Origin: Vibrio vulnificus CMCP6
GTDB taxonomy: Bacteria; Pseudomonadota; Gammaproteobacteria; Enterobacterales; Vibrionaceae
Assembly: GCF_000039765.1 (NCBI RefSeq)
Contig: NC_004459.3
Location: 1,470,001-1,502,000, forward strand
Direction: 5' to 3'
DNA: 32,000 nucleotides
In this document: one piece after another, positions 1,004-18,731 of the stretch
Position numbering within the stretch: position 1 is the stretch's first letter
How the letters are laid out: the number at the start of each line of letters is the position of its first letter
Notes under the pieces: model-generated
Seen by the model: only the letters and a program-made list of their open reading frames with translations
What the model was told of the DNA's origin: nothing
Database searches by the model: none
Program-made: the position numbers and the translations under genes

Positions 1004-1091
1004 TTCGCGAACGTAAAATTTTAAGAAGTTAATCAGGTCATATATTAAATATGGCTAAGGGTTGCTTTGTCTAAAAATAAGGAAGGATTCT

Positions 1092-2423
1092 ATGAAGCTT
1101 TATGATGCGATAATTGGAGTTGTTGAAAAATATATTGCTCCAATAGCGGCTAAAGTTGGTAATCAGCCTCACGTGAGAGCGATGCGTGATGGTTTTATCG
1201 TGGCCATGCCATTTATTATTGTTGGTAGTTTTATTTTAATTTTTGCTTTTCCACCTTTTTCAGAAGATACCACTAATACTTTTGGTCGAGTGTGGTTAGA
1301 TTTTGCTACTAAGCACTTCGATACCATTATGATGCCCTTCAATATGTCGATGGGGATCATGACGATATTTGTCTCGTTGGGGGTCGCTTACAGTTTGGCG
1401 AAAGCTTACAAAATGGATGGCATCACGAGTGCTGTGTTATCACTGATGTGCTTTTTGTTGGTGGCAGCACCGGCTAAAGATGGCGCTTTATCGATGGCAC
1501 ACATGGGCGGAACGGGAATCTTCACTGCAGTGATGTGTGCCTTCTTCGCGGTGGAGCTCTATCGCTTTATGAAGAAGCATAACATTACCATTCGAATGCC
1601 AGAACAAGTTCCTCCTGCGATTGCACGATCCTTTGAGGTTCTGCTACCAGTCTTAGCGATTTTTATTACGCTCTACCCGCTGAGTTTATTCGTGCAAGCC
1701 CAATACGATATGTTGATTCCAGATGCGGTTATGGCAATGTTTAAACCTCTGATCAGCGCATCCAATACACTTCCTGCTATTATTGGTGCCTTGCTGGTCT
1801 GTCAGCTATTGTGGTTTGCTGGTATTCACGGTGCGGCCATTGTTGTTGGCCTGCTTTCTCCTATCTTCCTAACTAATATCAGTGCAAACATTGATGCGTT
1901 CGTTGCCGGACAGCCAGTTCCAAACGTCTTTACTCAGCCATTCTGGGATTTCTACATCTTTATTGGTGGCTCTGGTGCGACATTAGCGCTAGTGATGTTG
2001 ATGTCTTTCAGCCGTTCAGCGCATTTAAAGAGCATTGGTCGTATGAGTGCGGTACCAGGACTCTTCCAGATTAACGAACCCGTTATCTTCGGTAGCCCTG
2101 TGGTGATGAACCCAATTCTCTTCCTACCATTTGTTTTTGCTCCGGTGATTAACGCCACCATCGCTTATTTTGCTGTGCAGTTTGGCTTTGTTGGCATGGG
2201 CGTAGCGACAACGCCTTGGACAACTCCGGCCATCATCGGTGCATCGTGGGGAAGTGGCTGGACATTTACGCCGATTCTCCTCGTTGTTGGGTTACTGATC
2301 CTTGATCTCTTCATCTATCTGCCATTTTTCAAAATGTTTGAGAAACAGATTCTGGAGCAAGAGCAACCCAACACAGAATCTCAAGAGCAGCCACAAGCCA
2401 GTGGCCAAGGTGTTACCGCTTAA
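1092..2423 (+). CDS. chbC: PTS lactose/cellobiose-family EIIC permease
   Basis: A polytopic membrane protein of about 443 aa (MKLYDAIIGVVEKYIAPIAAKVGNQPHVRAMRDGF...). I prefer the ATG at 1092, which has a GGAAGGA RBS, over the track start at 1062. Confidence 0.9.
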   Translation: MKLYDAIIGVVEKYIAPIAAKVGNQPHVRAMRDGFIVAMPFIIVGSFILIFAFPPFSEDTTNTFGRVWLDFATKHFDTIMMPFNMSMGIMTIFVSLGVAYSLAKAYKMDGITSAVLSLMCFLLVAAPAKDGALSMAHMGGTGIFTAVMCAFFAVELYRFMKKHNITIRMPEQVPPAIARSFEVLLPVLAIFITLYPLSLFVQAQYDMLIPDAVMAMFKPLISASNTLPAIIGALLVCQLLWFAGIHGAAIVVGLLSPIFLTNISANIDAFVAGQPVPNVFTQPFWDFYIFIGGSGATLALVMLMSFSRSAHLKSIGRMSAVPGLFQINEPVIFGSPVVMNPILFLPFVFAPVINATIAYFAVQFGFVGMGVATTPWTTPAIIGASWGSGWTFTPILLVVGLLILDLFIYLPFFKMFEKQILEQEQPNTESQEQPQASGQGVTA

Positions 2424-2436
2424 TTTATCGAGATTT

Positions 2437-2458
2437 GAGGCTGCGAAGTCGCAGCCTC
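2437..2458 (+). other. GC-rich stem-loop between chbC and chbA (GAGGCTGCGA-ag-TCGCAGCCTC)
   Basis: Perfect 10-nt inverted arms lie directly after the chbC stop (2421-2423) and before the chbA RBS GGAGGAG (2464-2470). There is no U-run after the hairpin. Confidence 0.6.
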
Positions 2459-2476
2459 TCTTTGGAGGAGAGAAAA

Positions 2477-2785
2477 ATGGAACAAGAACTGGTGGTGATG
2501 GAAATCATTTGTAATGCAGGTGAAGCAAGAAGTTTGTGCTTTGAAGCATTGAAATTATCACGGCAGAAAGAGTTTGTGCTGGCGGACGAAAAACTGGCTC
2601 AAGCAAAGGAGTGTTTGAACAAGTCACACTTAGTGCAAACGCAGCTGATTGAAGAAGATCAAGGTGAAGGCAAAGTGCCTATGACATTGGTCATGGTGCA
2701 TGCACAGGATCACCTTATGACGACAATCTTGGCTCATGAGCTTGCAGTAGAAATGGTCGAACTTCATAAGCAGTTGGCTGGATGA
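2477..2785 (+). CDS. chbA: PTS lactose/cellobiose-family EIIA component
   Basis: MEQELVVMEIICNAGEARSLCFEAL...VHAQDHLMT is typical of EIIA-Lac/Cel. The ATG at 2477 follows a strong GGAGGAG RBS. The upstream part of the track ORF runs through the hairpin and is probably not translated. Confidence 0.9.
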   Translation: MEQELVVMEIICNAGEARSLCFEALKLSRQKEFVLADEKLAQAKECLNKSHLVQTQLIEEDQGEGKVPMTLVMVHAQDHLMTTILAHELAVEMVELHKQLAG

Positions 2786-2794
2786 GGAAGTCTT

Positions 2795-4117
2795 ATGTCT
2801 AGAAAAGGACTAAAACTTGCGATTATCGGGGGAGGCAGTAGCTATACCCCTGAGTTAGTCGAAGGTGTATTAAAAAGAGCAGCATTTCTGCCAGTAGAGC
2901 AAATCCATTTTGTCGATATTGAGGCGGGTGCAGAAAAACTGGAGATCATTCGTCAGTTATCGCAAAGAATGGTGGATAAGGTTGGCGCTAAGATTGAGAT
3001 CAAAGCTGGCTTTGATCGTAGAGAAGCGATCTTGGGTGCCGATTTTGTCATGACACAATTTCGTGTAGGCGGATTAGCCGCCCGAGCCAGTGATGAGCGC
3101 ATCCCATTGAAGTATGATGTGATTGGTCAAGAAACCACTGGGCCAGGTGGGTTTGCTAAAGCCCTGCGCACCATCCCGGTGATCCTCGATATTTGTCGAG
3201 ATATCGAAGAGCTAGCACCTGAAGCTTGGATGCTGAACTTTACCAATCCAGCAGGGTTGGTCTCCGAAGCGGTAAGCAAGTACTCCAAGGTGAAAAGCAT
3301 TGGCTTATGCAATGTGCCAGTTTCAATGCAAATGATGATTGCAGAGATGATGGATTGCGAACCCAAGGAATTGCAGCTTGAGTTTGCTGGCCTTAATCAC
3401 TTGGTATGGGTACATAACGCTTGGCTAGACGGAAAAAATATCACGGAGACCGTGTTGGAAAAAGTTGGTGATGGTGCCAATTTCAGCATGAAGAACATTT
3501 GGGAAGAACCTTGGGATCCAACCTTCTTAAAAGCTTTAGGGGCCATTCCTTGTCCTTATCATCGCTACTTTTATCAAACCGACGCAATGTTGGCTGAAGA
3601 GAAGCAAAGCGCGCGAGAAAAAGGCACGCGAGCTGAGCAGGTGATGGAAACAGAAAAAGCGTTGTTCCAGCTTTATCAAGATCCCGGTTTAGATCATAAA
3701 CCCGAAGAGTTAGAGCAACGTGGTGGGGCGTACTATTCAGATGCTTCATTAAACTTGGTGGATGCGATTTACAACAACCGAAACAGTATCCATGTGGTTA
3801 ACGTCTTAAATAATGGTGCGATAAATACGTTGCCGGATAACGCCGTGATTGAATGCAGTTCTGTGGTAGGAAGTTGGGGAGCTAAGCCGATTGCTATAGG
3901 CACTTTGTCACCAAAACTCAGTGGACTGTTACATCAAGTGAAAGCCTATGAACAATTAGCGATCGAAGCTGCTGTTCATGGCGATTACCATCAGGCCTTG
4001 ATGGCATTAGCGAATAATCCATTGGTTCCTGATATTGGTAGAGCTAAGCTGATTTTGGACGATATTCTCCAAGAAAATGCAGAGTACTTACCGCAGTTTA
4101 AGTTAACCTCTCTTTAA
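2795..4117 (+). CDS. chbF: GH4 family 6-phospho-beta-glucosidase (NAD/Mn-dependent)
   Basis: An N-terminal Rossmann motif (KLAIIGGGSSYTPELV), a length of 440 aa, and a position after EIIA as in chb/cel operons. Confidence 0.9.
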   Translation: MSRKGLKLAIIGGGSSYTPELVEGVLKRAAFLPVEQIHFVDIEAGAEKLEIIRQLSQRMVDKVGAKIEIKAGFDRREAILGADFVMTQFRVGGLAARASDERIPLKYDVIGQETTGPGGFAKALRTIPVILDICRDIEELAPEAWMLNFTNPAGLVSEAVSKYSKVKSIGLCNVPVSMQMMIAEMMDCEPKELQLEFAGLNHLVWVHNAWLDGKNITETVLEKVGDGANFSMKNIWEEPWDPTFLKALGAIPCPYHRYFYQTDAMLAEEKQSAREKGTRAEQVMETEKALFQLYQDPGLDHKPEELEQRGGAYYSDASLNLVDAIYNNRNSIHVVNVLNNGAINTLPDNAVIECSSVVGSWGAKPIAIGTLSPKLSGLLHQVKAYEQLAIEAAVHGDYHQALMALANNPLVPDIGRAKLILDDILQENAEYLPQFKLTSL

Positions 4118-4136
4118 TAATAAGGTGGATGTTGAG

Positions 4137-4895
4137 ATGAAAGTTATTTTTAACGCTGACGATTTTGGCCTCACGCGAGGGGTGAATGATGGCATTGTCC
4201 ATGCTCATTTAGATGGCGTAGTACGCTCAACTACGATGATGGTTGGTATGCCCGCAGAAGCCCATGCAGTTGAGTTGGCTAACCATTTGCCAGAGTTAAA
4301 AGTGGGCCTTCATCTCAGATTCACTGCGGGGAGACCGCTAACGGAAGAGCAAAACCTAGTCGGCAGAGACGGCGATTTCACTCCTTATGGGCAATTTTGG
4401 CATCGACGAGACTACGATCCTATTGCGATACACAACGAAGCGGTAGCGCAAGTTGAGTACTTTTTAGCGCTGGGATTGAACTTGAGCCATATCGATAGTC
4501 ACCACCATGCGCATACTCATCCACAGTTTGAACCTGTTATTTACGACATTGCGAGAACCTATCAAGTACCGCTGCGAAGCACGGGATTGGCTGGTGAAGA
4601 AGAGTTTGGTTGCCGCTATCACTTTACCGATCATTTCTATGACAAGCGAGTAGGGCACGATTCGCTGATACAGCACTTGTTGACGTTAAAAGAGCACTAT
4701 GACGTTGTAGAAGTGATGTGTCACCCCGCCATCGTGGACACTGCGTTAGAAGCTTGCAGTGGTTATGCCAAACAAAGAGAACTTGAACTGGCCATTTTAA
4801 CCAGTGATGAACTCAAGCTAAGTTTGAGAAAGCATGATATCGAAGTCACGGATTATTCCGAGTTGATTTTTGCACCACTGCACAGCTGTGTATGA
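4137..4895 (+). CDS. chbG: YdjC/ChbG-family chitooligosaccharide deacetylase
   Basis: MKVIFNADDFGLTRGVNDGI... is the YdjC-family N-terminal signature (DDFG). The ATG at 4137 is preceded by an AAGGTGG RBS. Confidence 0.85.
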   Translation: MKVIFNADDFGLTRGVNDGIVHAHLDGVVRSTTMMVGMPAEAHAVELANHLPELKVGLHLRFTAGRPLTEEQNLVGRDGDFTPYGQFWHRRDYDPIAIHNEAVAQVEYFLALGLNLSHIDSHHHAHTHPQFEPVIYDIARTYQVPLRSTGLAGEEEFGCRYHFTDHFYDKRVGHDSLIQHLLTLKEHYDVVEVMCHPAIVDTALEACSGYAKQRELELAILTSDELKLSLRKHDIEVTDYSELIFAPLHSCV

Positions 4896-4899
4896 TTAA

Positions 4900-4952
4900 G
4901 ACTGCCAGCATCGCCCCCTAGTCACCTTTCAAGTTGCTGGCAGTCACTTTTT
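4900..4952 (+). terminator. Long-loop hairpin plus T-run between chbG and the regulator gene (GACTGCCAGCA-24 nt-TGCTGGCAGTC-ac-TTTTT)
   Basis: Perfect 11-nt inverted arms at 4900-4910 and 4935-4945, followed by TTTTT at 4948-4952. The large loop makes its strength as a terminator uncertain. Confidence 0.4.
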
Positions 4953-4990
4953 ATGAAGAAGCTCTGAGCGCTTCGAATTGGGTTGAAGGA

Positions 4991-5986
4991 ATGGCAAGAA
5001 TTAAAGATGTAGCAGAGCTTGCTGGTGTAAACCGCTCTACCGTATCGCGCATTATTAATGGCGAAGGCAAATTTAAAGAAGAAACCAAGAAGAAAGTTGA
5101 ATGGGCGATGGCGCAACTCAACTACCGACCAAGTGCTATAGCGCGCTCACTGGCCACATCTTCTTCCAATATGGTGGGGCTATTAGTTACCTACTATACA
5201 GGTGGTTTCTTCGGAGAAATGATGGACCGTGTTCAAACCGAGTTAGATCAACACAATAAATTTCTCATCACCGCTCAAGGACACCATTCCGCGCAAGGTG
5301 AACGAGATGCAATACAACGCTTTCATGACCTACGTTGTGATGGCTACGTCTTGCACAGCCGTTACTTATCTGATGATGATTTGAGAGAGTTAGCTCAGCA
5401 AACAACACCGTTCGTCTTATTAGATAGATACGTCGAAGGATTGGAAGAACGTTGTATTACCTTCGATCATCGAGCAGCTAGTTTGATCGCTGTGAATCAT
5501 CTAATTCATCAAGGTCATCGTCAAATCGGTTGCATTACTGGCCCAAGCCAACGGTATAACAGTCAACTGAGAAAACAAGGCTATCTAGATGCAATGAAGC
5601 AGATAGAGCATCAAGGAGGGGGGGCATTATGCATTGAAGGTGATTATGGTCGAAAAAGTGGCTACCGCGCGATGCAAGTTTTGCTTGAACGTGAACCTAC
5701 ATTGACGGCGGTATTTTCTTGCAGTGAAGAAATGACGATTGGTGCACTGCAATATTTGCATGAGAAGAAAATCGCAGTTCCAGAGCAAATATCTATAGTC
5801 AGTTTTGATAGTGTCGATCTGTGTGAGAGCCTTTATCCGACCGTGACAGCGGTGCATTTCCCGATTAGTGAGATGGCGGAAGTGGCGGTTCAAACCTTGA
5901 TTCATCTCATCAAAGATCAACCACTCACCCCTTTAGACGGTTTTCAGCCGATACTAAAAAGGCGGAATGCAGACCGTACAATTTAA
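4991..5986 (+). CDS. LacI/GalR-family transcriptional regulator
   Basis: MARIKDVAELAGVNRSTVSRIINGEG is the canonical LacI HTH, followed by a periplasmic-binding-protein-like sugar-binding core. The ATG at 4991 follows a GAAGGA RBS. Confidence 0.85.
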   Translation: MARIKDVAELAGVNRSTVSRIINGEGKFKEETKKKVEWAMAQLNYRPSAIARSLATSSSNMVGLLVTYYTGGFFGEMMDRVQTELDQHNKFLITAQGHHSAQGERDAIQRFHDLRCDGYVLHSRYLSDDDLRELAQQTTPFVLLDRYVEGLEERCITFDHRAASLIAVNHLIHQGHRQIGCITGPSQRYNSQLRKQGYLDAMKQIEHQGGGALCIEGDYGRKSGYRAMQVLLEREPTLTAVFSCSEEMTIGALQYLHEKKIAVPEQISIVSFDSVDLCESLYPTVTAVHFPISEMAEVAVQTLIHLIKDQPLTPLDGFQPILKRRNADRTI

Positions 5987-6557: not shown

Positions 6558-7814
6558 GTGGCAACTATCAAAATTACAGTAGATCGTATTCAACCTGGAT
6601 TACATATACGTCTGCCGTTGAAGTGGAACGAGCACCCTTTTCTTTTTAATAGCTTCAAGATCAAGGATCAGGAACAAGTGGAAATGATTCGCCACTTGGG
6701 CGTGAAGTGGGTCTTCCTCAATGTTAATCAGAGTGATACGCAGCCATTGCCTGCCAATCAGCAAAACCTTTCTGAAAGTGAACAGCAATCTGAAAAACTT
6801 GATGGCGAAACCAAAAAGCTTTGGGATGAAAAGCAAAAGCGTATCGAGAAGTTAAGTTCTTACCGACGTCGTGTCATTCAATGCGAAAAAGAATTTGAAC
6901 GTTCGTTGGCGAGAATGCGCTCTGTCATGACCAAAATTCGCAATCGTCCGACCGATGCGGTTGATGAAGCAAAACAACTCATCGATGACATCGTTGAAAA
7001 ATTGATGAGTGATGACAATGTGACCCTTCATCTCATGAATGGGAAAAGTGAATTTGAAGATATCTATTTTCACTCATTAAACGTGTCCGTCATCGCGATG
7101 ATGATAGGCCGTGCAAAAGGGTTTAGTGCGGCACAGCTAAAAGAACTTTCATTTGCCGCTTTGTTTCACGATATCGGTAAAATAAAAATTCCCTCTGCGA
7201 TTGTCCGTAAGCAAACGCCACTCACTGATCCTGAGTTTAATTACCTCAAACTGCATACCAAGTACGGATTGGATTTAGCCAATACAGTAGATGGTTTTCC
7301 AGATAGTGCAAAAAAGGTCATTGCGCAGCATCATGAGCTCAATGATGGTTCCGGTTATCCTGATGGTTTAAAGGAAAATGAAATTGACGAGCTGACACAA
7401 GTGATTGCGGTGGCGAATGCTTTCGACAATTTATGCCATCACAACATTCCTGCAGAACAGAAAATTCCCTACACCGCACTATCTCATCTATATAAGAACT
7501 GCAAGCACCTCTATAGTGCCGAGAACCTGAATATTCTCATTAAGTTCATGGGAGTGTTTCCACCAGGTACGGTCGTACAACTTTCCAATAACATGGTCGG
7601 GCTGGTCATTTCCGTCAATGCGGCTCATCTACTGTATCCCAATGTTTTGATGTACGACCCAGCAGTACCAAGAACTCAGGCGCCCATCATCGATTTAGCG
7701 GACAAAGATATAAAGATAGTCAGTGCAATTCATCCTAATAAATTACCTGACAAAGTGAGAGAGTACTTAAACCCTCGCTCACGAATTTCTTATTTCTTTG
7801 ATAGTGACGATTAG
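6558..7814 (+). CDS. HD-GYP domain c-di-GMP phosphodiesterase with a DUF3391-like N-terminus
   Basis: HD motif (LFHDIGKIKIP) and HHELNDGSGYPDG (GYP motif). The start codon is GTG. Confidence 0.85.
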   Translation: MATIKITVDRIQPGLHIRLPLKWNEHPFLFNSFKIKDQEQVEMIRHLGVKWVFLNVNQSDTQPLPANQQNLSESEQQSEKLDGETKKLWDEKQKRIEKLSSYRRRVIQCEKEFERSLARMRSVMTKIRNRPTDAVDEAKQLIDDIVEKLMSDDNVTLHLMNGKSEFEDIYFHSLNVSVIAMMIGRAKGFSAAQLKELSFAALFHDIGKIKIPSAIVRKQTPLTDPEFNYLKLHTKYGLDLANTVDGFPDSAKKVIAQHHELNDGSGYPDGLKENEIDELTQVIAVANAFDNLCHHNIPAEQKIPYTALSHLYKNCKHLYSAENLNILIKFMGVFPPGTVVQLSNNMVGLVISVNAAHLLYPNVLMYDPAVPRTQAPIIDLADKDIKIVSAIHPNKLPDKVREYLNPRSRISYFFDSDD

Positions 7815-8129: not shown

Positions 8130-8322
8130 TATAAACCTATCAATCTGTGTGGGCACTCGTTGATGATAATCCAAAAGATTTATCAATGAACTGAGTGACC
8201 AAATCAAGTTGGTAACAGCCTTGAGCTGTTTTGTTTCACTTTTTTAAAAGTGAAAGCCAATAAGAGCACAGTCAATTTATTCAGTATTCATTGAGCCGAA
8301 GCGCAAGCTTCAAAAAACTTTT

Positions 8323-9864
<1,542 letters not shown>

Positions 9865-9926
9865 TACGATGATTATTGCGATGAGTGTTCACACAGATTG
9901 ATACGGTTTAGATTAGAGTATCTAGT

Positions 9927-10003
9927 GGGTCTGTAGCTCAGGTGGTTAGAGCGTACGCCTGATAAGCGTAAGGTCGGTGGTTCGAGTCCACTCAGACCCA
10001 CCA
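9927..10003 (+). tRNA. tRNA-Ile (GAT)
   Basis: Acceptor stem GGGTCTG/CAGACCC, anticodon loop CTGATAA, encoded CCA. A standard ITS tRNA. Confidence 0.95.
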
Positions 10004-10013
10004 CTCAAACGAT

Positions 10014-10089
10014 GGGGCTATAGCTCAGCTGGGAGAGCGCCTGCCTTGCACGCAGGAGGTCAGCAGTTCGATCCTGCTTAGCTCCACCA
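10014..10089 (+). tRNA. tRNA-Ala (TGC)
   Basis: GGGGCTATAGCTCAGCTGGGAGAGC..., with the G3:U70 identity pair, anticodon TGC and encoded CCA. Confidence 0.95.
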
Positions 10090-10140
10090 TCTTTAAGGGT
10101 TTTTCCTTAAGAATCTTTAAAAATGGTTTCGAAAGAAATC

Positions 10141-10153
10141 TGCTCTTTAACAA
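10141..10153 (+). promoter_or_regulatory. Spacer boxA (TGCTCTTTAACAA)
   Basis: A perfect boxA consensus in the 16S-23S spacer. Confidence 0.7.
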
Positions 10154-10368
10154 TTTGGAAAGCTGACAAAACAACAATTTATTGTTGTTTGTAAAGTTCT
10201 CAATGTTTGTCTTTAGGACAAACACCAACAAACACATTCAAGTGTTCTTGGGAAGGTCACTTTTAGTGACTATTCGAAATTGAGTCCGGCAAAATCAACG
10301 CTATCTCGCTCATTCAAATAATGAGATAGCAACTTTGGTTGTTTAACAAAGACCCTTTGGGGTTGTAT

Positions 10369-13256
<2,888 letters not shown>

Positions 13257-13341
13257 ACAACACCCAAAGGGTTTTGATGGACTCGATGTAAGAACATTGA
13301 ATGTGTAGAGAATAGAAACAGCTTTCCGAATTTTAAGAATT

Positions 13342-13461
13342 TGCTTGGCGACCATAGCGTTTTGGACCCACCTGATTCCATTCCGAACTCAGAAGTGAAA
13401 CGAAATAGCGTCGATGGTAGTGTGGGGTTTCCCCATGTGAGAGTAGAACATCGCCAGGCTT
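13342..13461 (+). rRNA. rrf: 5S ribosomal RNA, copy 1
   Basis: TGCTTGGCGACCATAGCG...CCCATGTGAGAGTAGAACATCGCCAGGCT. It is 120 nt long and collinear with E. coli 5S. Confidence 0.95.
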
Positions 13462-13470
13462 TTAATTTTT

Positions 13471-13495
13471 GAAACCCGCTTTCAGAGCGGGTTTC
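13471..13495 (+). other. Terminator-like perfect hairpin inside the rrn operon (GAAACCCGCT-ttcag-AGCGGGTTTC)
   Basis: A 10-bp perfect stem 10 nt after 5S copy 1. TTTT follows only after a 5-nt gap. More operon genes lie downstream. Confidence 0.5.
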
Positions 13496-13508
13496 TCAAG
13501 TTTTAAAT

Positions 13509-13584
<76 letters not shown>

Positions 13585-13590
13585 TGATTT

Positions 13591-13710
13591 TGCTTAGCGA
13601 CCATAGCGCTTTGGACCCACCTGATTCCATTCCGAACTCAGAAGTGAAACGAAGTAGCGCCGATGGTAGTGTGGGGTTTCCCCATGTGAGAGTAGGACAT
13701 TGCTAGGCTC
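13591..13710 (+). rRNA. rrf: 5S ribosomal RNA, copy 2 (sequence variant)
   Basis: 120 nt, collinear with copy 1 with about 8 substitutions, several of them compensatory in helix I. Confidence 0.93.
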
Positions 13711-13771
13711 TTATTTGTTTTTTGCTTTTAAAAAGTAAAACAAAACTTAGACTCAATAGTCTAACCAGTGC

Positions 13772-13848
13772 GGAGCGGTAGTTCAGTTGGTTAGAATACC
13801 GGCCTGTCACGCCGGGGGTCGCGGGTTCGAGTCCCGTCCGCTCCGCCA
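13772..13848 (+). tRNA. tRNA-Asp (GTC)
   Basis: GGAGCGGTAGTTCAGTTGGTTAGAATACCGGCCTGTCACGCCGG...CCGCTCCGCCA. Confidence 0.95.
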
Positions 13849-13886: not shown

Positions 13887-14182
13887 ACGTCTGGATGTTT
13901 GGGTTTACTCTAACGTCGAATGAGTTCTGCTTGATGAGTTCCGCTTGAATGCAAGTCTGGCCGTCCCTTGCCGCTCTAAACTGTGTTTTGTTGTCTGCGA
14001 TTACAGGTCTCTCTTACTGAAGGTGATTACTCGCTGATAGCTCCTCTGATTGGCATAGCATGCTTCCATTATGGCTTCATTACCTATGGTACGTTACTCT
14101 TAGAGTCGCTTAGGCATTTATAGGCTGCTACTTTCTTTTGAATCCTCACTTTCTGTCTTTTTAAGTGTTGGGATAACAGTAA

Positions 14183-14914
14183 TTAAACTGCAATACCGAC
14201 TTCTAACTTATCTAGCCAATCTAAAAAACGTGGTACGTCATCACCACGGAAAATACCGCCGTGTTGCGGGCACATCATCTCTATATCCAGTTGGCTTACC
14301 TTGTCAATCCATGCTGATTTGGCTTTTTCCGATGGCATCCAACGTTGATGAAAATAGGCCATTTTCTCGATATGACTACCAAAGTCTTCAACGAAAAGTG
14401 GCGCGTCGATACGATCAAGTGCGGCGCCAATATCTCCGGACATTAAGATCTTTGCTTCAGGGTCATAGACGGAAAAATTTCCTGAAGAATGCATATAGTG
14501 GGCCGGAATAAATTGAATATCTAACCCTGCTAATGACACCGTTCCACCTTGATCTTTGATCGGAGCAAAGGTGATAGATTCCATACCAAAATGACGAATA
14601 AAGCCTTCCCAAAGCCAAGGTGAATGGAGCGTTGCTGAGGGGAGGGTTTTATCCCAAAGTCCAAGAGAGGAGATGATGTCGGGATCTTGATGCGATGCAA
14701 ATAGATGGGTAATTTGCTCAAGTGATATTTCTTTCACAACACTGCTGAGCATGGCAGAGAAAAGCTCGATACCACCAGGGTCGAGGAGCATCGCCTGGCC
14801 GTTGTGTACCAGCATATACTGATTAGTATCGATGATTTTGTCAGGCTTATGAGGATCTCTACCAAACATCAACCAACGGTGGGAGCCTTCTTCATAGAGA
14901 ATTTCTGAGCGCAT
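14183..14914 (-). CDS. Stand-alone flavodiiron-type (MBL-fold, ODP-like) di-iron domain protein, 243 aa
   Basis: Motifs SHQDPD (res 74-79), PAHYMHS (137-143), SGD (159-161) and CPQHGG (215-220) are collinear with the HxExDH...H...D...H ligand pattern of the flavodiiron/NorV N-terminal domain. There is no flavodoxin domain. Confidence 0.7.
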   Translation of the reverse strand: MRSEILYEEGSHRWLMFGRDPHKPDKIIDTNQYMLVHNGQAMLLDPGGIELFSAMLSSVVKEISLEQITHLFASHQDPDIISSLGLWDKTLPSATLHSPWLWEGFIRHFGMESITFAPIKDQGGTVSLAGLDIQFIPAHYMHSSGNFSVYDPEAKILMSGDIGAALDRIDAPLFVEDFGSHIEKMAYFHQRWMPSEKAKSAWIDKVSQLDIEMMCPQHGGIFRGDDVPRFLDWLDKLEVGIAV

Positions 14915-14931
14915 AATTTTTAATGTCCTTA

Positions 14932-15543
14932 TTACAAAAAGAGCGAAAAGAGTTTAAGAGAGAGTGAAACATGATGGCGAATTGCATCAGAGAATTCCGT
15001 TACACTATCGGCGATAGCGTTGAGTTGAATTCGGTAACGCTCGTCGACTTTAGATGCTTCAACGCTGAGCATAGTCGATATGATCTGAGCGATGCGCAGT
15101 TGGTCATAGAGCTCCTGAAGGGCTTCCTTTAGGGATTTAGCTTTGAGAGTAAATAAGGTGTTGAGTTGCTGATAATCTTCGTTAGCACGCTGTTTGGCTT
15201 GATTTAAACTGGATAGAAATATTGCTTCTTTGCTGCTTTGTTCCACACGATTCAACTGCTTTAACACAAATTGAGCACGAGTTCGCTCTGTGGCAATTTG
15301 ACTGAGTTGTTGAGCTTGTAGATTGATGGTATTTGAAGAATGAAATGTCAGGAGGACGAGCTCATCAATGGAATCCGTGACGGGTCTAAATCCTGCTGCA
15401 CTTTCTCCCGCTCTTAGAGCAAGCGCTCTGGCATTACTGGCAACCAGTTGTAGTTGTTTCGCAATTTTTAACCCTCGATTTAACTCTGCTGATACTTCAG
15501 TGGCAATAACGAATAGAGGTTTTCGTTCAATGGTGTCTCTCAT
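14932..15543 (-). CDS. Soluble coiled-coil protein with a chemoreceptor (MCP) hairpin-tip-like motif; no TM, HAMP or ligand-binding domain
   Basis: IAKQLQLVASNARALALRAGESAAGFRPVTDSIDEL versus the MCP consensus [36 protein letters not shown], about 40% identity over 40 aa. I prefer the ATG at 15543; the track uses the TTG at 15555. It lies 17 bp upstream of the di-iron gene, which has an AAGGA RBS. Confidence 0.6.
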   Translation of the reverse strand: MRDTIERKPLFVIATEVSAELNRGLKIAKQLQLVASNARALALRAGESAAGFRPVTDSIDELVLLTFHSSNTINLQAQQLSQIATERTRAQFVLKQLNRVEQSSKEAIFLSSLNQAKQRANEDYQQLNTLFTLKAKSLKEALQELYDQLRIAQIISTMLSVEASKVDERYRIQLNAIADSVTEFSDAIRHHVSLSLKLFSLFL

Positions 15544-15672
15544 TAACTCGCTCAATACACAGTTTGTTCTTATATAGGTATAGAGCTGAGTTGCATATTT
15601 GCCAATGCCTAAGGTTCTAAAATTGGCAGCGAGAAAAAGGAATTGAACGGAGATGAGCTAATGATAGATGTG

Positions 15673-15701
15673 AAAAAGCCGCATCAATGATGCGGCTTTT
15701 T
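15673..15701 (-). terminator. Terminator of tRNA array 1 (bidirectional-looking: A5-GCCGCATC-aat-GATGCGGC-T5)
   Basis: A perfect 8-bp GC-rich stem immediately after the last tRNA of the minus-strand array. Confidence 0.7.
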
Positions 15702-15707
15702 CTAAGG

Positions 15708-15783
15708 TGGCTCCTCCTGCTGGGCTCGAACCAGCGACCTGCGGATTAACAGTCCGTCGCTCTACCGACTGAGCTAAGGAGGA
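15708..15783 (-). tRNA. tRNA-Asn (GTT)
   Basis: The reverse complement reads TCCTCCTTAGCTCAGTCGGTAGAGCGACGGACTGTTAATCCGCAGGTCGCTGGTTCGAGCCCAGCAGGAGGAGCCA. Confidence 0.93.
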
Positions 15784-15823
15784 ACTATTCTGTGTTTCTT
15801 GCAATGCAAGATAACGTTATAAA

Positions 15824-15899
<76 letters not shown>

Positions 15900-15934
15900 G
15901 CCTAAACAACAAGCTTTCGCTTATCCTTTGAAAG

Positions 15935-16010
15935 TGGCTCCTCCTGCTGGGCTCGAACCAGCGACCTGCGGATTAACAGTCCGTCGCTCTACCGACTGAG
16001 CTAAGGAGGA
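15935..16010 (-). tRNA. tRNA-Asn (GTT)
   Basis: Identical to the copy at 15708-15783. Confidence 0.93.
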
Positions 16011-16049
16011 ACTATTCGGTTATTGTGTGTTAGCACAACTTAAAATAAG

Positions 16050-16125
16050 TGGTGCCTCGAGGCGGAATCGAACCACCGACACGAGGATTTTCAATCCTCT
16101 GCTCTACCGACTGAGCTATCGAGGC
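16050..16125 (-). tRNA. tRNA-Phe (GAA), acceptor-stem variant (GCCTCGA...TCGAGGC)
   Basis: The reverse complement reads GCCTCGATAGCTCAGTCGGTAGAGCAGAGGATTGAAAATCCTCGTGTCGGTGGTTCGATTCCGCCTCGAGGCACCA. Confidence 0.92.
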
Positions 16126-16132
16126 AAAAGAA

Positions 16133-16208
<76 letters not shown>

Positions 16209-16266
16209 GCACTATATTCTTTTTAAATTGTCGTTCGTACGTTAAGCACCAACGACTTTAAATTCG

Positions 16267-16342
16267 TGGTGCCCGGAGGCGGAATCGAACCACCGACACG
16301 AGGATTTTCAATCCTCTGCTCTACCGACTGAGCTATCCGGGC
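16267..16342 (-). tRNA. tRNA-Phe (GAA), canonical acceptor stem (GCCCGGA...TCCGGGC)
   Basis: Same body as 16050-16125 apart from base pairs 4:69 and 5:68. Confidence 0.93.
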
Positions 16343-16352
16343 GACGAGGTGT

Positions 16353-16381
16353 ATTAAACGGTTTTTCGCTTTCTAGGTCAA
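16353..16381 (-). promoter_or_regulatory. Promoter of tRNA array 1 (minus strand: TTGACC-17 nt-TTTAAT, GC-rich discriminator)
   Basis: The hexamers are read on the minus strand about 10 nt upstream of the first tRNA-Phe. An A/T-rich UP-like tract lies at 16382-16405. Confidence 0.55.
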
Positions 16382-16528
16382 TATAAAAATGCAAAAAAAA
16401 TATCGTTTGCTGCTTTTGTGCCCGCTATGGGGTGTTTTTATTCGTTTTAAACGATGGAAGTACAGTATATAAACATCTAAGCGACATTTATTTATCAGAT
16501 TTAATGGGATGGACAGCGATTCCAGCAA

Positions 16529-16555
16529 TAAAAAAGCACGCGATAAGACGTGCTT
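16529..16555 (-). terminator. Terminator of the MCP gene (minus strand: AAGCACG-tcttatcg-CGTGCTT-TTTTATT)
   Basis: A 7-bp stem plus T-run about 20 nt after the MCP stop codon. Confidence 0.6.
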
Positions 16556-16575
16556 AGTTAGAAAACAGGTTTAGT

Positions 16576-18213
16576 TTAATGCTTTACGGAAAAATTATTG
16601 ACCCAGTTTTCGAGTTGGTTCGCTAAGGTCGCCAAGCTGCGCGTGCTGTTGTGACTCTCTGTGACGACGCTGGTAAGCTGATTGCCGCTGTCTTCAATCA
16701 TGTTGATACGCTGTGCAATATCATCACTCACTTGTGTTTGTTCTGCGGCGGCGGTCGCAATTTGTTGGCTCATGGTACTGATGGATTCCAAGGCTTGAAC
16801 GATCTGTTGCAACGCTTCTGAAGCTGTTTGCGATTCAACAACGGTGCTTTGGCTGGTCTCCGCACAGATTTCCATGGTTTGGATGGCATTGCGAGAACCT
16901 TGTTGCAAGTTATTGATCATCAACTGGATCTCTTTAGTGCTGGATTGGGTTCTTCCTGCAAGGTTACGTACTTCGTCCGCGACGACGGCAAAACCTCTTC
17001 CTTGCTCGCCAGCTCGAGCAGCCTCAATCGCAGCGTTGAGGGCCAACAAGTTGGTTTGCTCCGCAATATCGCCGATCACATCGAGCACTTTTACAATGTT
17101 GTTCACGTCTTTATCGAGATCTGCCACCGCTTGGCTGGCGGTGCCTAACTGGCTTGCCAATCCTTGGATGTTGCTGACGGTATTGTGAATCAGCACCTGT
17201 GTATGTTTACTCTGTTTATCGGCTTCATCCGTATTGTTGGCCGTATCACTGGCGGAATCGGCGACGTGATTTGCAGAAGAAGCCATTTCTGTCATCGCTG
17301 TTGCTATCATCGCGGTCGACTGTTGCTGCATCGCAGTGAGGTTGGAAATGGTATCGCTACGGCTTTCAACGGACGCCAGTTCGTCACGCAGTGCGTGCAT
17401 TGAACGTTCTAGGTTGCTGATCATCTCGGCTAAGGAGAGGCTCATCTCTTGCACGGCCTGGTAAATACTGCCTTGTGGCGCTTTATTGTCGAAACTGGTT
17501 TGGATGCGACCTTTTGCAACGTCTTGTACTGCGTTGCGCACATCATTTGGCTCGCCACCCAACAGATTCAGCATTTTATTGATGGAAACAATCAAGCCAC
17601 CCAAAATCGTGCCTGCAATCACAAGACAAAGGACCAACTGCCATTGGGCGGTAGACCAAAAGCGAGCATTCACTTCATTGAAGCCGATACCCGTACCGAC
17701 AACCCAACCCCAGTGTGGGGTTCTTTCTGCGATTGAGAGTTTTTCCTCAATCGAGCCATCGGCCAGTTTTTGCGTCCAAGTATATTCCACCAGTTGGCCT
17801 GTTTTTCGGCCAAGCACATCTAGGATTAACTGGCCAACGCTGTTGCCATTACCATCTCGAAAATCATGAAAACTGGTGCCATGAAGTTGTGGATCTAATG
17901 GAGTGGCAATAAAGATCATTTTTTCATCGGCAACGTAAACATACTCATTGTCTTTGTAGATGTTATTACGCAGTAGTCGAGTGGCTAATGCTTTCGCTTC
18001 TGGCTCAGACATTTTTCCTTCTACGGCCATTTTCTCGACTTCGGTCAGGATGCTATAAGCGCTGCGAAAGAGTTCGGTTACTCGTGCTTTGTTATCTAGA
18101 TTACTGGCCACCCTTAGTGTCCAAAGGCCAGTAGCGGTTAACGCGAGTAGGGCAATTAAGATAATTCCCGATAATAAATAAGCTTGTGTCTTAAGTTTCA
18201 TAAAAATGCTCAT
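16576..18213 (-). CDS. Methyl-accepting chemotaxis protein with a periplasmic single-Cache-type sensor
   Basis: An N-terminal TM helix; a Cache-like segment ([15 protein letters not shown]...[14 protein letters not shown]); a second TM helix; HAMP; and the canonical tip [34 protein letters not shown]. Confidence 0.9.
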
Positions 18214-18435: not shown

Positions 18436-18511
18436 TGGCTCCTCCTGCTGGGCTCGAACCAGCGACCTGCGGATTAACAGTCCGTCGCTCTACCGACTGA
18501 GCTAAGGAGGA
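18436..18511 (-). tRNA. tRNA-Asn (GTT)
   Basis: Identical to the array-1 Asn genes. Confidence 0.93.
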
Positions 18512-18525
18512 ACAAATTTTAATAA

Positions 18526-18601
<76 letters not shown>

Positions 18602-18655
18602 ACACTATATTCTTTAATTATCGCTTGTACTATTTGCACCAACGATTTGAATTCG

Positions 18656-18731
18656 TGGTGCCCGGAGGCGGAATCGAACCACCGACACGAGGATTTTCAA
18701 TCCTCTGCTCTACCGACTGAGCTATCCGGGC
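18656..18731 (-). tRNA. tRNA-Phe (GAA), canonical acceptor stem
   Basis: Identical to 16267-16342. Confidence 0.93.

Follow-up and report, generated by a model that had tools for sequence, protein, structure and literature searches.

Described ODP-receptor systems and the Vibrio vulnificus locus

Few direct O2/iron sensors are known for chemotaxis. The oxygen-binding di-iron protein (ODP) is one of them, and studies of it have been limited to an anaerobic spirochaete and a thermophile. The work presented here concerns a two-gene cassette of Vibrio vulnificus CMCP6 which lies on the minus strand of a stretch of 32,000 nucleotides (nt) on contig NC_004459.3 (positions 1,470,001 to 1,502,000; referred to as the window). 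The cassette consists of a gene for a small protein of about 200 amino acids (aa), the mini-receptor, and a gene for an ODP of 243 aa directly downstream. Two reports present the ODP of Treponema denticola as a sensor of O2 in chemotaxis with a genetic link to TDE2496, a homologue of methyl-accepting chemotaxis proteins (MCPs) that has neither transmembrane nor sensor modules and is able to modulate CheA (PMC7666581; PMC6978683). A third report mentions ODP-MCP operons in two gene orders and the occurrence of ODP with other signalling genes as well (PMC7319448). In V. vulnificus, an aerobic and iron-responsive pathogen, the cassette is a concrete candidate for aerotaxis, iron taxis or O2/iron stress signalling.

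The cassette shares two traits with the ODPs and cognate soluble receptors of Treponema denticola (TDE2498/TDE2496) and Thermotoga maritima (ODP with Tm14), namely the motifs of a stand-alone ODP and an adjacent gene for a soluble MCP-like protein without transmembrane and sensor parts. The receptor partners, however, are built differently. The Treponema partner (locus L011) has 284 aa, reaches 83 bits on the Pfam model MCPsignal and forms one long hairpin, whose single tip, IEAARAGSVGNGF, lies mid-chain near residue 157. Its gene is found downstream of the ODP gene, whereas the Vibrio-type partner is always encoded upstream. Tm14 has a single tip at about residue 115 of a 213-aa construct. 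In contrast, the Vibrio-type partner carries two tips within ~200 aa, fails the MCPsignal threshold and lacks methylation-type motifs. An original prediction, made from the letters of the window, had compared the locus with the ODP and soluble receptor of Thermotoga and Treponema. The kind of module named in it is supported, with the correction that the partner is double-tipped, unlike the single long hairpin of Treponema. The evidence supports that the cassette belongs to the known ODP-soluble-receptor kind, while no description of its receptor architecture was found in the literature. The searched literature contained no characterisation of such a module in Vibrio, as had been surmised, and no paper on ODP in Vibrio or on a natural double-tipped receptor; the original ODP survey (Muok et al. 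2019 PNAS) may count such proteins.

Identification of the 243-aa protein as an ODP

The 243-aa protein matched the Pfam model ODP (PF19583) with 246.8 bits (cutoff 27.2, E 2e-73) from the first to the last profile position (1-194 of 194). Its alignments with the two solved ODPs, PDB 6QRQ (E 4e-64) and 6QNM (E 1e-57), extended over the entire length. Its identity to these sensor ODPs was 40-50% in collinear alignments, with 40% for 6QNM. The latter is a Treponema protein: the sequence P0223 is 100% identical to it, and the nearest named relatives of P0223 come from T. pedis and T. socranskii. In the window ODP, HQDPD occupies residues 75-79, PAHYMHS 137-143, SGDIGAA 159-165 and PQHGG 216-220, and the motifs HQDPD, P(A/S)HxxHS, SGDIGAA and PQHG are identical in this protein, 6QRQ and 6QNM. 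They constitute a candidate metal site, whose presumed iron ligands are those of the family. All of the motifs on which a collinear di-iron domain had been predicted (SHQDPD, PAHYMHS, SGD and CPQHGG) are thus present. Judged by these matches, the protein is a stand-alone ODP of the metallo-β-lactamase (MBL) fold. Its homology to the ODPs of Treponema and Thermotoga predicts that it binds first Fe(II) and then O2 at a di-iron site.

The MBL fold (Lactamase_B, E 1.3e-16) and the weak similarity to flavodiiron proteins and NorV, with which the protein shares a homologous MBL-like di-iron domain, would also suit a metabolic or detoxifying enzyme, either O2/NO-reducing or a hydrolytic MBL, with the coiled-coil neighbour being functionally unrelated. 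However, flavodiiron proteins matched the window ODP only at E ~1e-4, and the NorV model gave 32.9 bits against a cutoff of 635. The flavodiiron motif is H-x-E-x-D-H, unlike the HQDPD of the window ODP. No flavodoxin or rubredoxin module was detected in Pfam and NCBIfam scans, ODP and Lactamase_B being the sole Pfam matches. Because of the high ODP score, the low flavodiiron and NorV scores and the missing modules, the protein is neither an O2/NO reductase, which had already been thought unlikely, nor a typical hydrolytic MBL, and the alignments with 6QRQ and 6QNM place it with the di-iron ODPs. Furthermore, its gene adjoined a mini-receptor gene in each of the eleven genomic contexts sampled, occasionally with overlapping reading frames, which speaks for a functional pair. 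An enzymatic role with an unrelated neighbour, already disfavoured, is therefore highly improbable.

Relationship of the mini-receptor to MCP tips

The mini-receptor is named 'chemotaxis protein' (203 aa) by NCBI. In a BLASTP comparison with the MCP encoded in the window, 23 of 56 residues were identical (41%) in a gapless alignment with E 5e-6, so that the tip similarity of about 40% noted in the prediction was better than chance. With 17.9 bits on the Pfam model MCPsignal (PF00015), the protein stayed below the gathering score of 34.6 and is thus not a canonical MCP. Among 32 relatives, thirteen had MCPsignal matches at E<0.01 (best E 7.6e-6), and no NCBIfam model matched the small protein. 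The profile of these 32 relatives was compared with solved structures and found 3G6B/3G67 and the tip fragments of 3UR1/4JPB best (E 9e-6 to 5e-5), followed by TM1143. 3G6B/3G67 represent the Thermotoga soluble receptor Tm14, and 3UR1/4JPB its ternary complexes with CheA and CheW.

A transmembrane segment was not found (maximum Kyte-Doolittle 19-residue mean 0.85), nor was a HAMP or sensor domain in the Pfam scan, in which the weak MCPsignal match was the only one; this agrees with the prediction. A methylation-type motif was likewise not found in the mini-receptor, and a simple pattern matched in merely three out of 188 family members. The helices of the AlphaFold2 model described below are too short for an adaptation region. 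The canonical MCP of the window shares the homologous tip and the antiparallel helical hairpin with the mini-receptor, whereas the latter is devoid of transmembrane, sensor, HAMP and methylation parts, scores below the threshold and has ~13 heptads per hairpin. Taken from sequence, these properties support a soluble, sensor-less relative of the MCP tip without a transmembrane part.

The first tip (SNARALALRAGESAAGF, Table 1) shows the strongest conservation within the family. Residue conservation was calculated from ~190 family sequences, and residues are given in the numbering of a 207-aa reading frame. N41 is conserved in 100%, G50 in 99%, R48 in 95% and F56 in 93%. The stretch carries the MCP-tip residues N41, A42, R48, A49, G50, E51, G55 and F56 in the pattern N-A-x-x-E/x-A-x-R-A-G-E-x-x-x-G-F. 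Profile A1 matched the Tm14 tip structures with E 9e-6.

Two tandem tips and predicted fold

The original prediction had regarded the small protein as a single chemoreceptor tip. The kinship to MCP tips stood, albeit with an MCPsignal score under the threshold, but the analysis supports two tandem MCP-tip hairpins in the mini-receptor and not one. The second tip (VEASKVDERYRIQLNAIADSV, Table 1) has the family consensus SRVEASQAGEY..L..VADNV with E166 conserved in 99% and A167 in 93%. In distant members, the C-terminal half reads SRVEASRAGEY..SLEVVADNLE, which is close to a canonical MCP tip. When the N-terminal and C-terminal halves were compared with hhalign on the basis of an alignment of 188 sequences, their match covered 57 columns and put tip on tip (E 5.5e-5). 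With a shallow alignment of 32 sequences, the match was not significant (E 0.088, 9 columns). The two halves are strongly diverged from each other.

Each half-profile found MCP tips in the PDB by itself (E ~1e-5 and 3e-6). The profile of the C-terminal half alone (80 positions) found 3UR1/4JPB (3e-6), 3G67 (8e-6), 6S18 (8e-4) and 2CH7 (5e-3). The alignments with the MCP tips were gapless and ran tip to tip, with EA.(R/Q)AG placed over EAARAG. Set against four different MCP tips, the half-profiles gave 32-42 bits (hairpin 1) and 21-27 bits (hairpin 2), and the centre of the alignment was the tip in every case. A closer relationship of the hairpins to ODP-partner receptors than to ordinary MCPs was considered and rejected, the order being Tm14, the window MCP, the MCP of locus L007 and the Treponema partner.

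A first AlphaFold2 model had a predicted local distance difference test (pLDDT) score of 84 and four helices (residues 14-53, 56-107, 115-167 and 172-204 in the 207-aa numbering) connected by short loops. With a more diverse alignment, the pLDDT increased to 94.2 with a predicted template modelling score of 0.85 and helices at 10-49, 52-103, 110-164 and 168-200 (203-aa numbering). The modelled protein was a monomer. It comprises two hairpins of ~95 residues each with the tips at about residues 55 and 170, and the best fold matches among solved structures were single-chain four-helix bundles of ~196 aa (template modelling score 0.55-0.6). In such an up-down-up-down bundle, the turns between helices 1 and 2 and between helices 3 and 4 are at the same end, and the tips would therefore lie side by side as in a receptor homodimer. 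Gly or Pro at the loop positions throughout the family supports real helix breaks. According to the model, the mini-receptor appears to be a single-chain four-helix bundle that imitates, as a pseudo-dimer, the tip by which a receptor dimer controls the kinase.

Two double-tipped systems are comparable. DosM of the cytoplasmic cluster I arrays of V. cholerae (Briegel et al. 2016) is reportedly long with its tips at opposite ends, thereby bridging two baseplates. Like the mini-receptor, it is a soluble Vibrio protein whose single chain holds two MCP signalling tips. In the mini-receptor, however, the short loops of the model would leave the two tips together at one end of a short bundle. V. vulnificus is also reported to have no cluster I analogue (PMC10107281). 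The second system is man-made. Two 71-residue tip fragments of Tm14 or Tar were fused into single-chain 'dimers', which bind CheA/CheW and exert control over CheA (bioRxiv 10.1101/2020.03.27.011866). Such constructs (Greenswag 2015, Muok 2020) carry two tip hairpins per polypeptide and mimic a four-helix tip in the same manner as the mini-receptor. They differ in their identical halves and, in some cases, in a trimerisation motif, whereas the mini-receptor family is natural, has diverged halves and is tied to ODP.

Family distribution and pairing with ODP

When 1.84 billion representatives were searched exhaustively with a profile, 322 clusters at 50% identity were obtained, 219 of them at E<=1e-10. 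Nearly all members of the mini-receptor family have 196-220 aa and were matched over the full length. The uniform length and the full-length matches indicate a discrete family and not an occasional truncation. The named hosts were marine Gammaproteobacteria, i.e. many Vibrio species, Enterovibrio, Thaumasiovibrio, Aurantivibrio and Hahellaceae. A record labelled V. vulnificus (P0005) was 78% identical to the mini-receptor of the window, while the main cluster with 118 members was 98% identical. There may be two diverged alleles of the cassette in V. vulnificus, or the record may be mislabelled and resemble V. floridensis.

The mini-receptor gene was situated directly upstream of the ODP gene on the same strand in 11/11 contexts, and the two genes are thus co-conserved in every context sampled. 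The spacing ranged from a 23-nt overlap to 72 nt across the homologous loci and is consistent with co-transcription. Besides the present window of V. vulnificus with its rRNA/tRNA neighbours, the pair was observed in V. floridensis (L001), in L002 and L003 (~40% identity; L003 with a PAS-GGDEF gene ~5 kb away), in L004/L005 with a REC-PP2C gene directly upstream, in L006, inside a che cluster (L007/L008), on the P0067 contig, in L009/L010, in V. mimicus next to recBCD (L012) and in L013 with a GGDEF gene directly upstream of the cassette. The remaining neighbours thus differed by context (rRNA/tRNA, recBCD, GGDEF, lpxK/kdsB and others). Constant among unrelated neighbours, the pair thus has the character of a portable cassette of two genes.

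Genes for CheY, CheA and CheW as well as HDOD border one side of the L007/L008 pair, and genes for REC-PP2C, CheR, CheW, an MCP and a CheA-REC hybrid border the opposite side. The cassette is therefore located between two different chemosensory gene sets (L007 4628-10597 and L008 1-5105). The first set comprises CheY, a classical CheA, CheW and HDOD, and the second one CheR, CheW, an MCP of 465 aa and a CheA-REC hybrid of 1008 aa.

Proposed signalling role

On the grounds of homology and gene context, it is rather probable that ODP reports O2/Fe(II) through the mini-receptor to CheA/CheW. ODP would bind Fe(II) and O2 as predicted above and interact with the mini-receptor, which would be a kinase-control tip stripped of methylation helices, HAMP, sensor and membrane parts. 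The mini-receptor would dock on CheW/CheA via its conserved tip or tips, and the O2/iron state of ODP would be converted into a change in CheA output. The chemotaxis function of the cassette and its coupling to CheA/CheW are what we infer from these relationships.

Several observations weigh against this signalling role or against the double-tipped architecture. Tip 2 of V. vulnificus is degenerate (VEASKVDERY) with VD where the family has AG, and MCPsignal matched in only one out of ten C-terminal halves that were searched singly against Pfam. The MCPsignal score of the whole protein is below the gathering score, as stated above. In comparison with E. coli Tsr, several canonical trimer-contact positions appear to be substituted in the mini-receptor. 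The recognised receptor classes comprise 24-44 or more heptads; with ~13 heptads per hairpin the bundle is far shorter, and its fit into an array is not assured. Instead of a single-chain bundle, the protein may form a domain-swapped oligomer, given that the model is that of a monomer. Finally, che genes are not close to the cassette in V. vulnificus and in most other contexts.

The low MCPsignal score, the missing methylation region and the strict pairing with ODP, set against the loose link to che genes, would also fit a mini-receptor that has no contact with CheA/CheW at all. It would then serve as a scaffold, stabiliser or regulator dedicated to ODP, or as a decoy that perturbs arrays, and the tip would be kept for binding ODP. 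In Treponema, deletion of ODP alters the ordering of CheA and ODP has no visible position in the array (PMC7666581), which could be read in the same way. However, the invariant residues in the family alignment are those that define MCP tips (N41, R48, G50, G55 and F56 together with E166 and A167), both hairpins scored on every MCP tip tested, and the pair of L007/L008 resides among cheA, cheW and cheY. We consider such a role restricted to ODP to be improbable.

If the mini-receptor signals to CheA/CheW, the target pathway in V. vulnificus would be either che1/F6 (motility) or che2/F7 with Aer2 and RsbU/RsbV. V. vulnificus is reported to have two chemosensory clusters, che1 (F6) for flagellar chemotaxis and che2 (F7) with the haem-containing O2 sensor Aer2 and RsbU/RsbV, the latter being related to O2-dependent stress and iron metabolism (PMC10107281). 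It is reported to have no analogue of the V. cholerae che1 cluster (cluster I, F9), which responds to low energy (PMC10107281). The suggestion in the original prediction that the cassette feeds the hypoxia-associated cytoplasmic arrays is thus unsupported for V. vulnificus as far as the literature goes. In the MiST census of V. vulnificus YJ016, one of 51 chemoreceptors was classified as '24H', the shortest class (PMC10107281). This lone receptor might be the mini-receptor forced into the nearest class.

Genes for REC-SpoIIE (PP2C) response regulators were located beside the pair in two unrelated metagenomic lineages (L004 1210-2775 in L004/L005; L007 3359-4495 and L008 6646-7782 in L007/L008). 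They hint at a partner-switching output like RsbU/RsbV. Together with the reported relation of RsbU/RsbV to O2 and iron, this recurrence would make che2 a live alternative to che1. The output of the O2/iron-sensing cassette might accordingly lie outside flagellar chemotaxis, in partner switching or in chemosensory signalling unrelated to motility. In V. vulnificus, this would be F7 che2 with Aer2 and the REC-PP2C/STAS pair RsbU/RsbV. On the other hand, a PP2C neighbour was observed in 2/11 contexts only, the cassette and che2 are at different loci in V. vulnificus, and no interaction of CheA2 and RsbU was reported from a two-hybrid assay (PMC10107281). The characterised Treponema ODP system acts on chemotaxis (PMC7666581). 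An output other than flagellar chemotaxis therefore seems unlikely, though less so than a mini-receptor that never meets CheA/CheW.

Beyond the favoured signal flow from ODP to CheA/CheW, a broader proposal can be made tentatively. The proteins of ~200 aa might constitute a natural, undescribed class of minimal chemoreceptors, i.e. single-chain pseudo-dimers of two diverged tips encoded next to ODP. Their faces could split the work, one contacting CheW/CheA or receptors and the other one ODP. For V. vulnificus, V. mimicus and other marine Gammaproteobacteria, the cassette would then be a mobile O2/Fe(II) input that requires no methylation, and its targets may include both motility and F7/RsbU-type stress signalling. 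As a kinase-control module, the mini-receptor would be smaller than any natural one known to us, and it would correspond in nature to the single-chain receptor dimers engineered for studies of CheA control. For structural work, it would be attractive with regard to the regulation of CheA by tips and to signalling from an accessory sensor to a receptor without a transmembrane or HAMP relay, and its unlike halves could help to assign functions to the individual faces of a receptor tip.

Organisation of the locus

The features of the locus are compiled in Table 1. The two minus-strand genes with their short spacer and the AAGGA in front of the second one were read directly from the sequence and are as predicted. 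The mini-receptor gene ends with a stop codon at 14934-14932, and the ODP gene starts with an ATG at 14914-14912. An in-frame TTG at 15555 would extend the first reading frame to 14932..15555(-) with 207 aa.

Table 1. Features of the cassette and its surroundings in the window; residues of the tips refer to the 207-aa reading frame.
Feature	Position	Strand	Basis or remark
Mini-receptor gene, 203 aa from ATG at 15543 (NCBI-annotated length)	14932..15543	(-)	open reading frame call
Tip 1, SNARALALRAGESAAGF, residues 40-56	15388..15438	(-)	canonical-like MCP hairpin tip
Tip 2, VEASKVDERYRIQLNAIADSV, residues 165-185	15001..15063	(-)	degenerate second tip
Intergenic spacer, 17 nt	14915..14931	(-)	read from sequence
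AAGGA Shine-Dalgarno, 11 nt 5' of ODP ATG	14926-14930	(-)	read from sequence
ODP gene, 243 aa, ATG start	14183..14914	(-)	Pfam ODP PF19583 and PDB alignments
Promoter candidate TTGGCA-17 nt-TATACC, 5' of mini-receptor gene	15577..15605	(-)	weak and tentative; by eye only
Terminator-like hairpin, AAAAAGCCGCATCATTGATGCGGCTTTTT, 3' of tRNA-Asn (15708-15783)	~15673..15701	(-)	by eye; not listed by consensus scan
sCache_2 MCP gene	16576..18213		
tRNA array, six genes	15708-16342	(-)	
tRNA array, three genes	18436-18731	(-)	
rrn operon	8322-13848	(+)	
First 5S gene of rrn operon	13344-13459	(+)	
Second 5S gene of rrn operon	13593-13708	(+)	score identical to that of first 5S
Gene for DUF3391 + HD_5 protein	6558-7814	(+)	HD-GYP-type
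Sugar utilisation operon	1062-5986	(+)	chitobiose/cellobiose-type

The cassette is flanked by the rrn operon on one side and by the six-gene tRNA array on the other. The terminator-like hairpin separates this array from the cassette, and the gene pair therefore probably has its own promoter. A scan for sigma-70 promoters in 13900-16600 gave no site meeting the criteria. A sigma-54 motif seen by eye near TTGGCA was rejected on account of a GG-to-GC spacing of 9 and not 12. The base composition gave no sign of recent horizontal transfer, as the GC content (41-47%) resembles that of the flanks.

The sCache_2 MCP gene is the sole chemotaxis gene of the window besides the cassette, from which it is separated by a tRNA array; the other genes are housekeeping genes. 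Both tRNA arrays consist of Asn(GTT)/Thr(TGT)/Phe(GAA) units and flank this MCP gene, and matching Rfam scores suggest near-identical tRNA copies. With the MCP gene between repeated tRNA blocks and the ODP cassette just outside, the region looks insertion-prone. The rrn operon contains 16S, tRNA-Ile, tRNA-Ala, 23S, 5S, tRNA-Thr(GGT), a second 5S and tRNA-Asp. Its tail is unusual in that the 5S gene is duplicated around a tRNA. Just upstream of this operon, a protein with DUF3391 and HD_5 is encoded, which is probably a cyclic di-GMP phosphodiesterase. The sugar utilisation operon encodes a phosphotransferase system EIIC, a GH4 glycosidase, YdjC and a LacI-family regulator.

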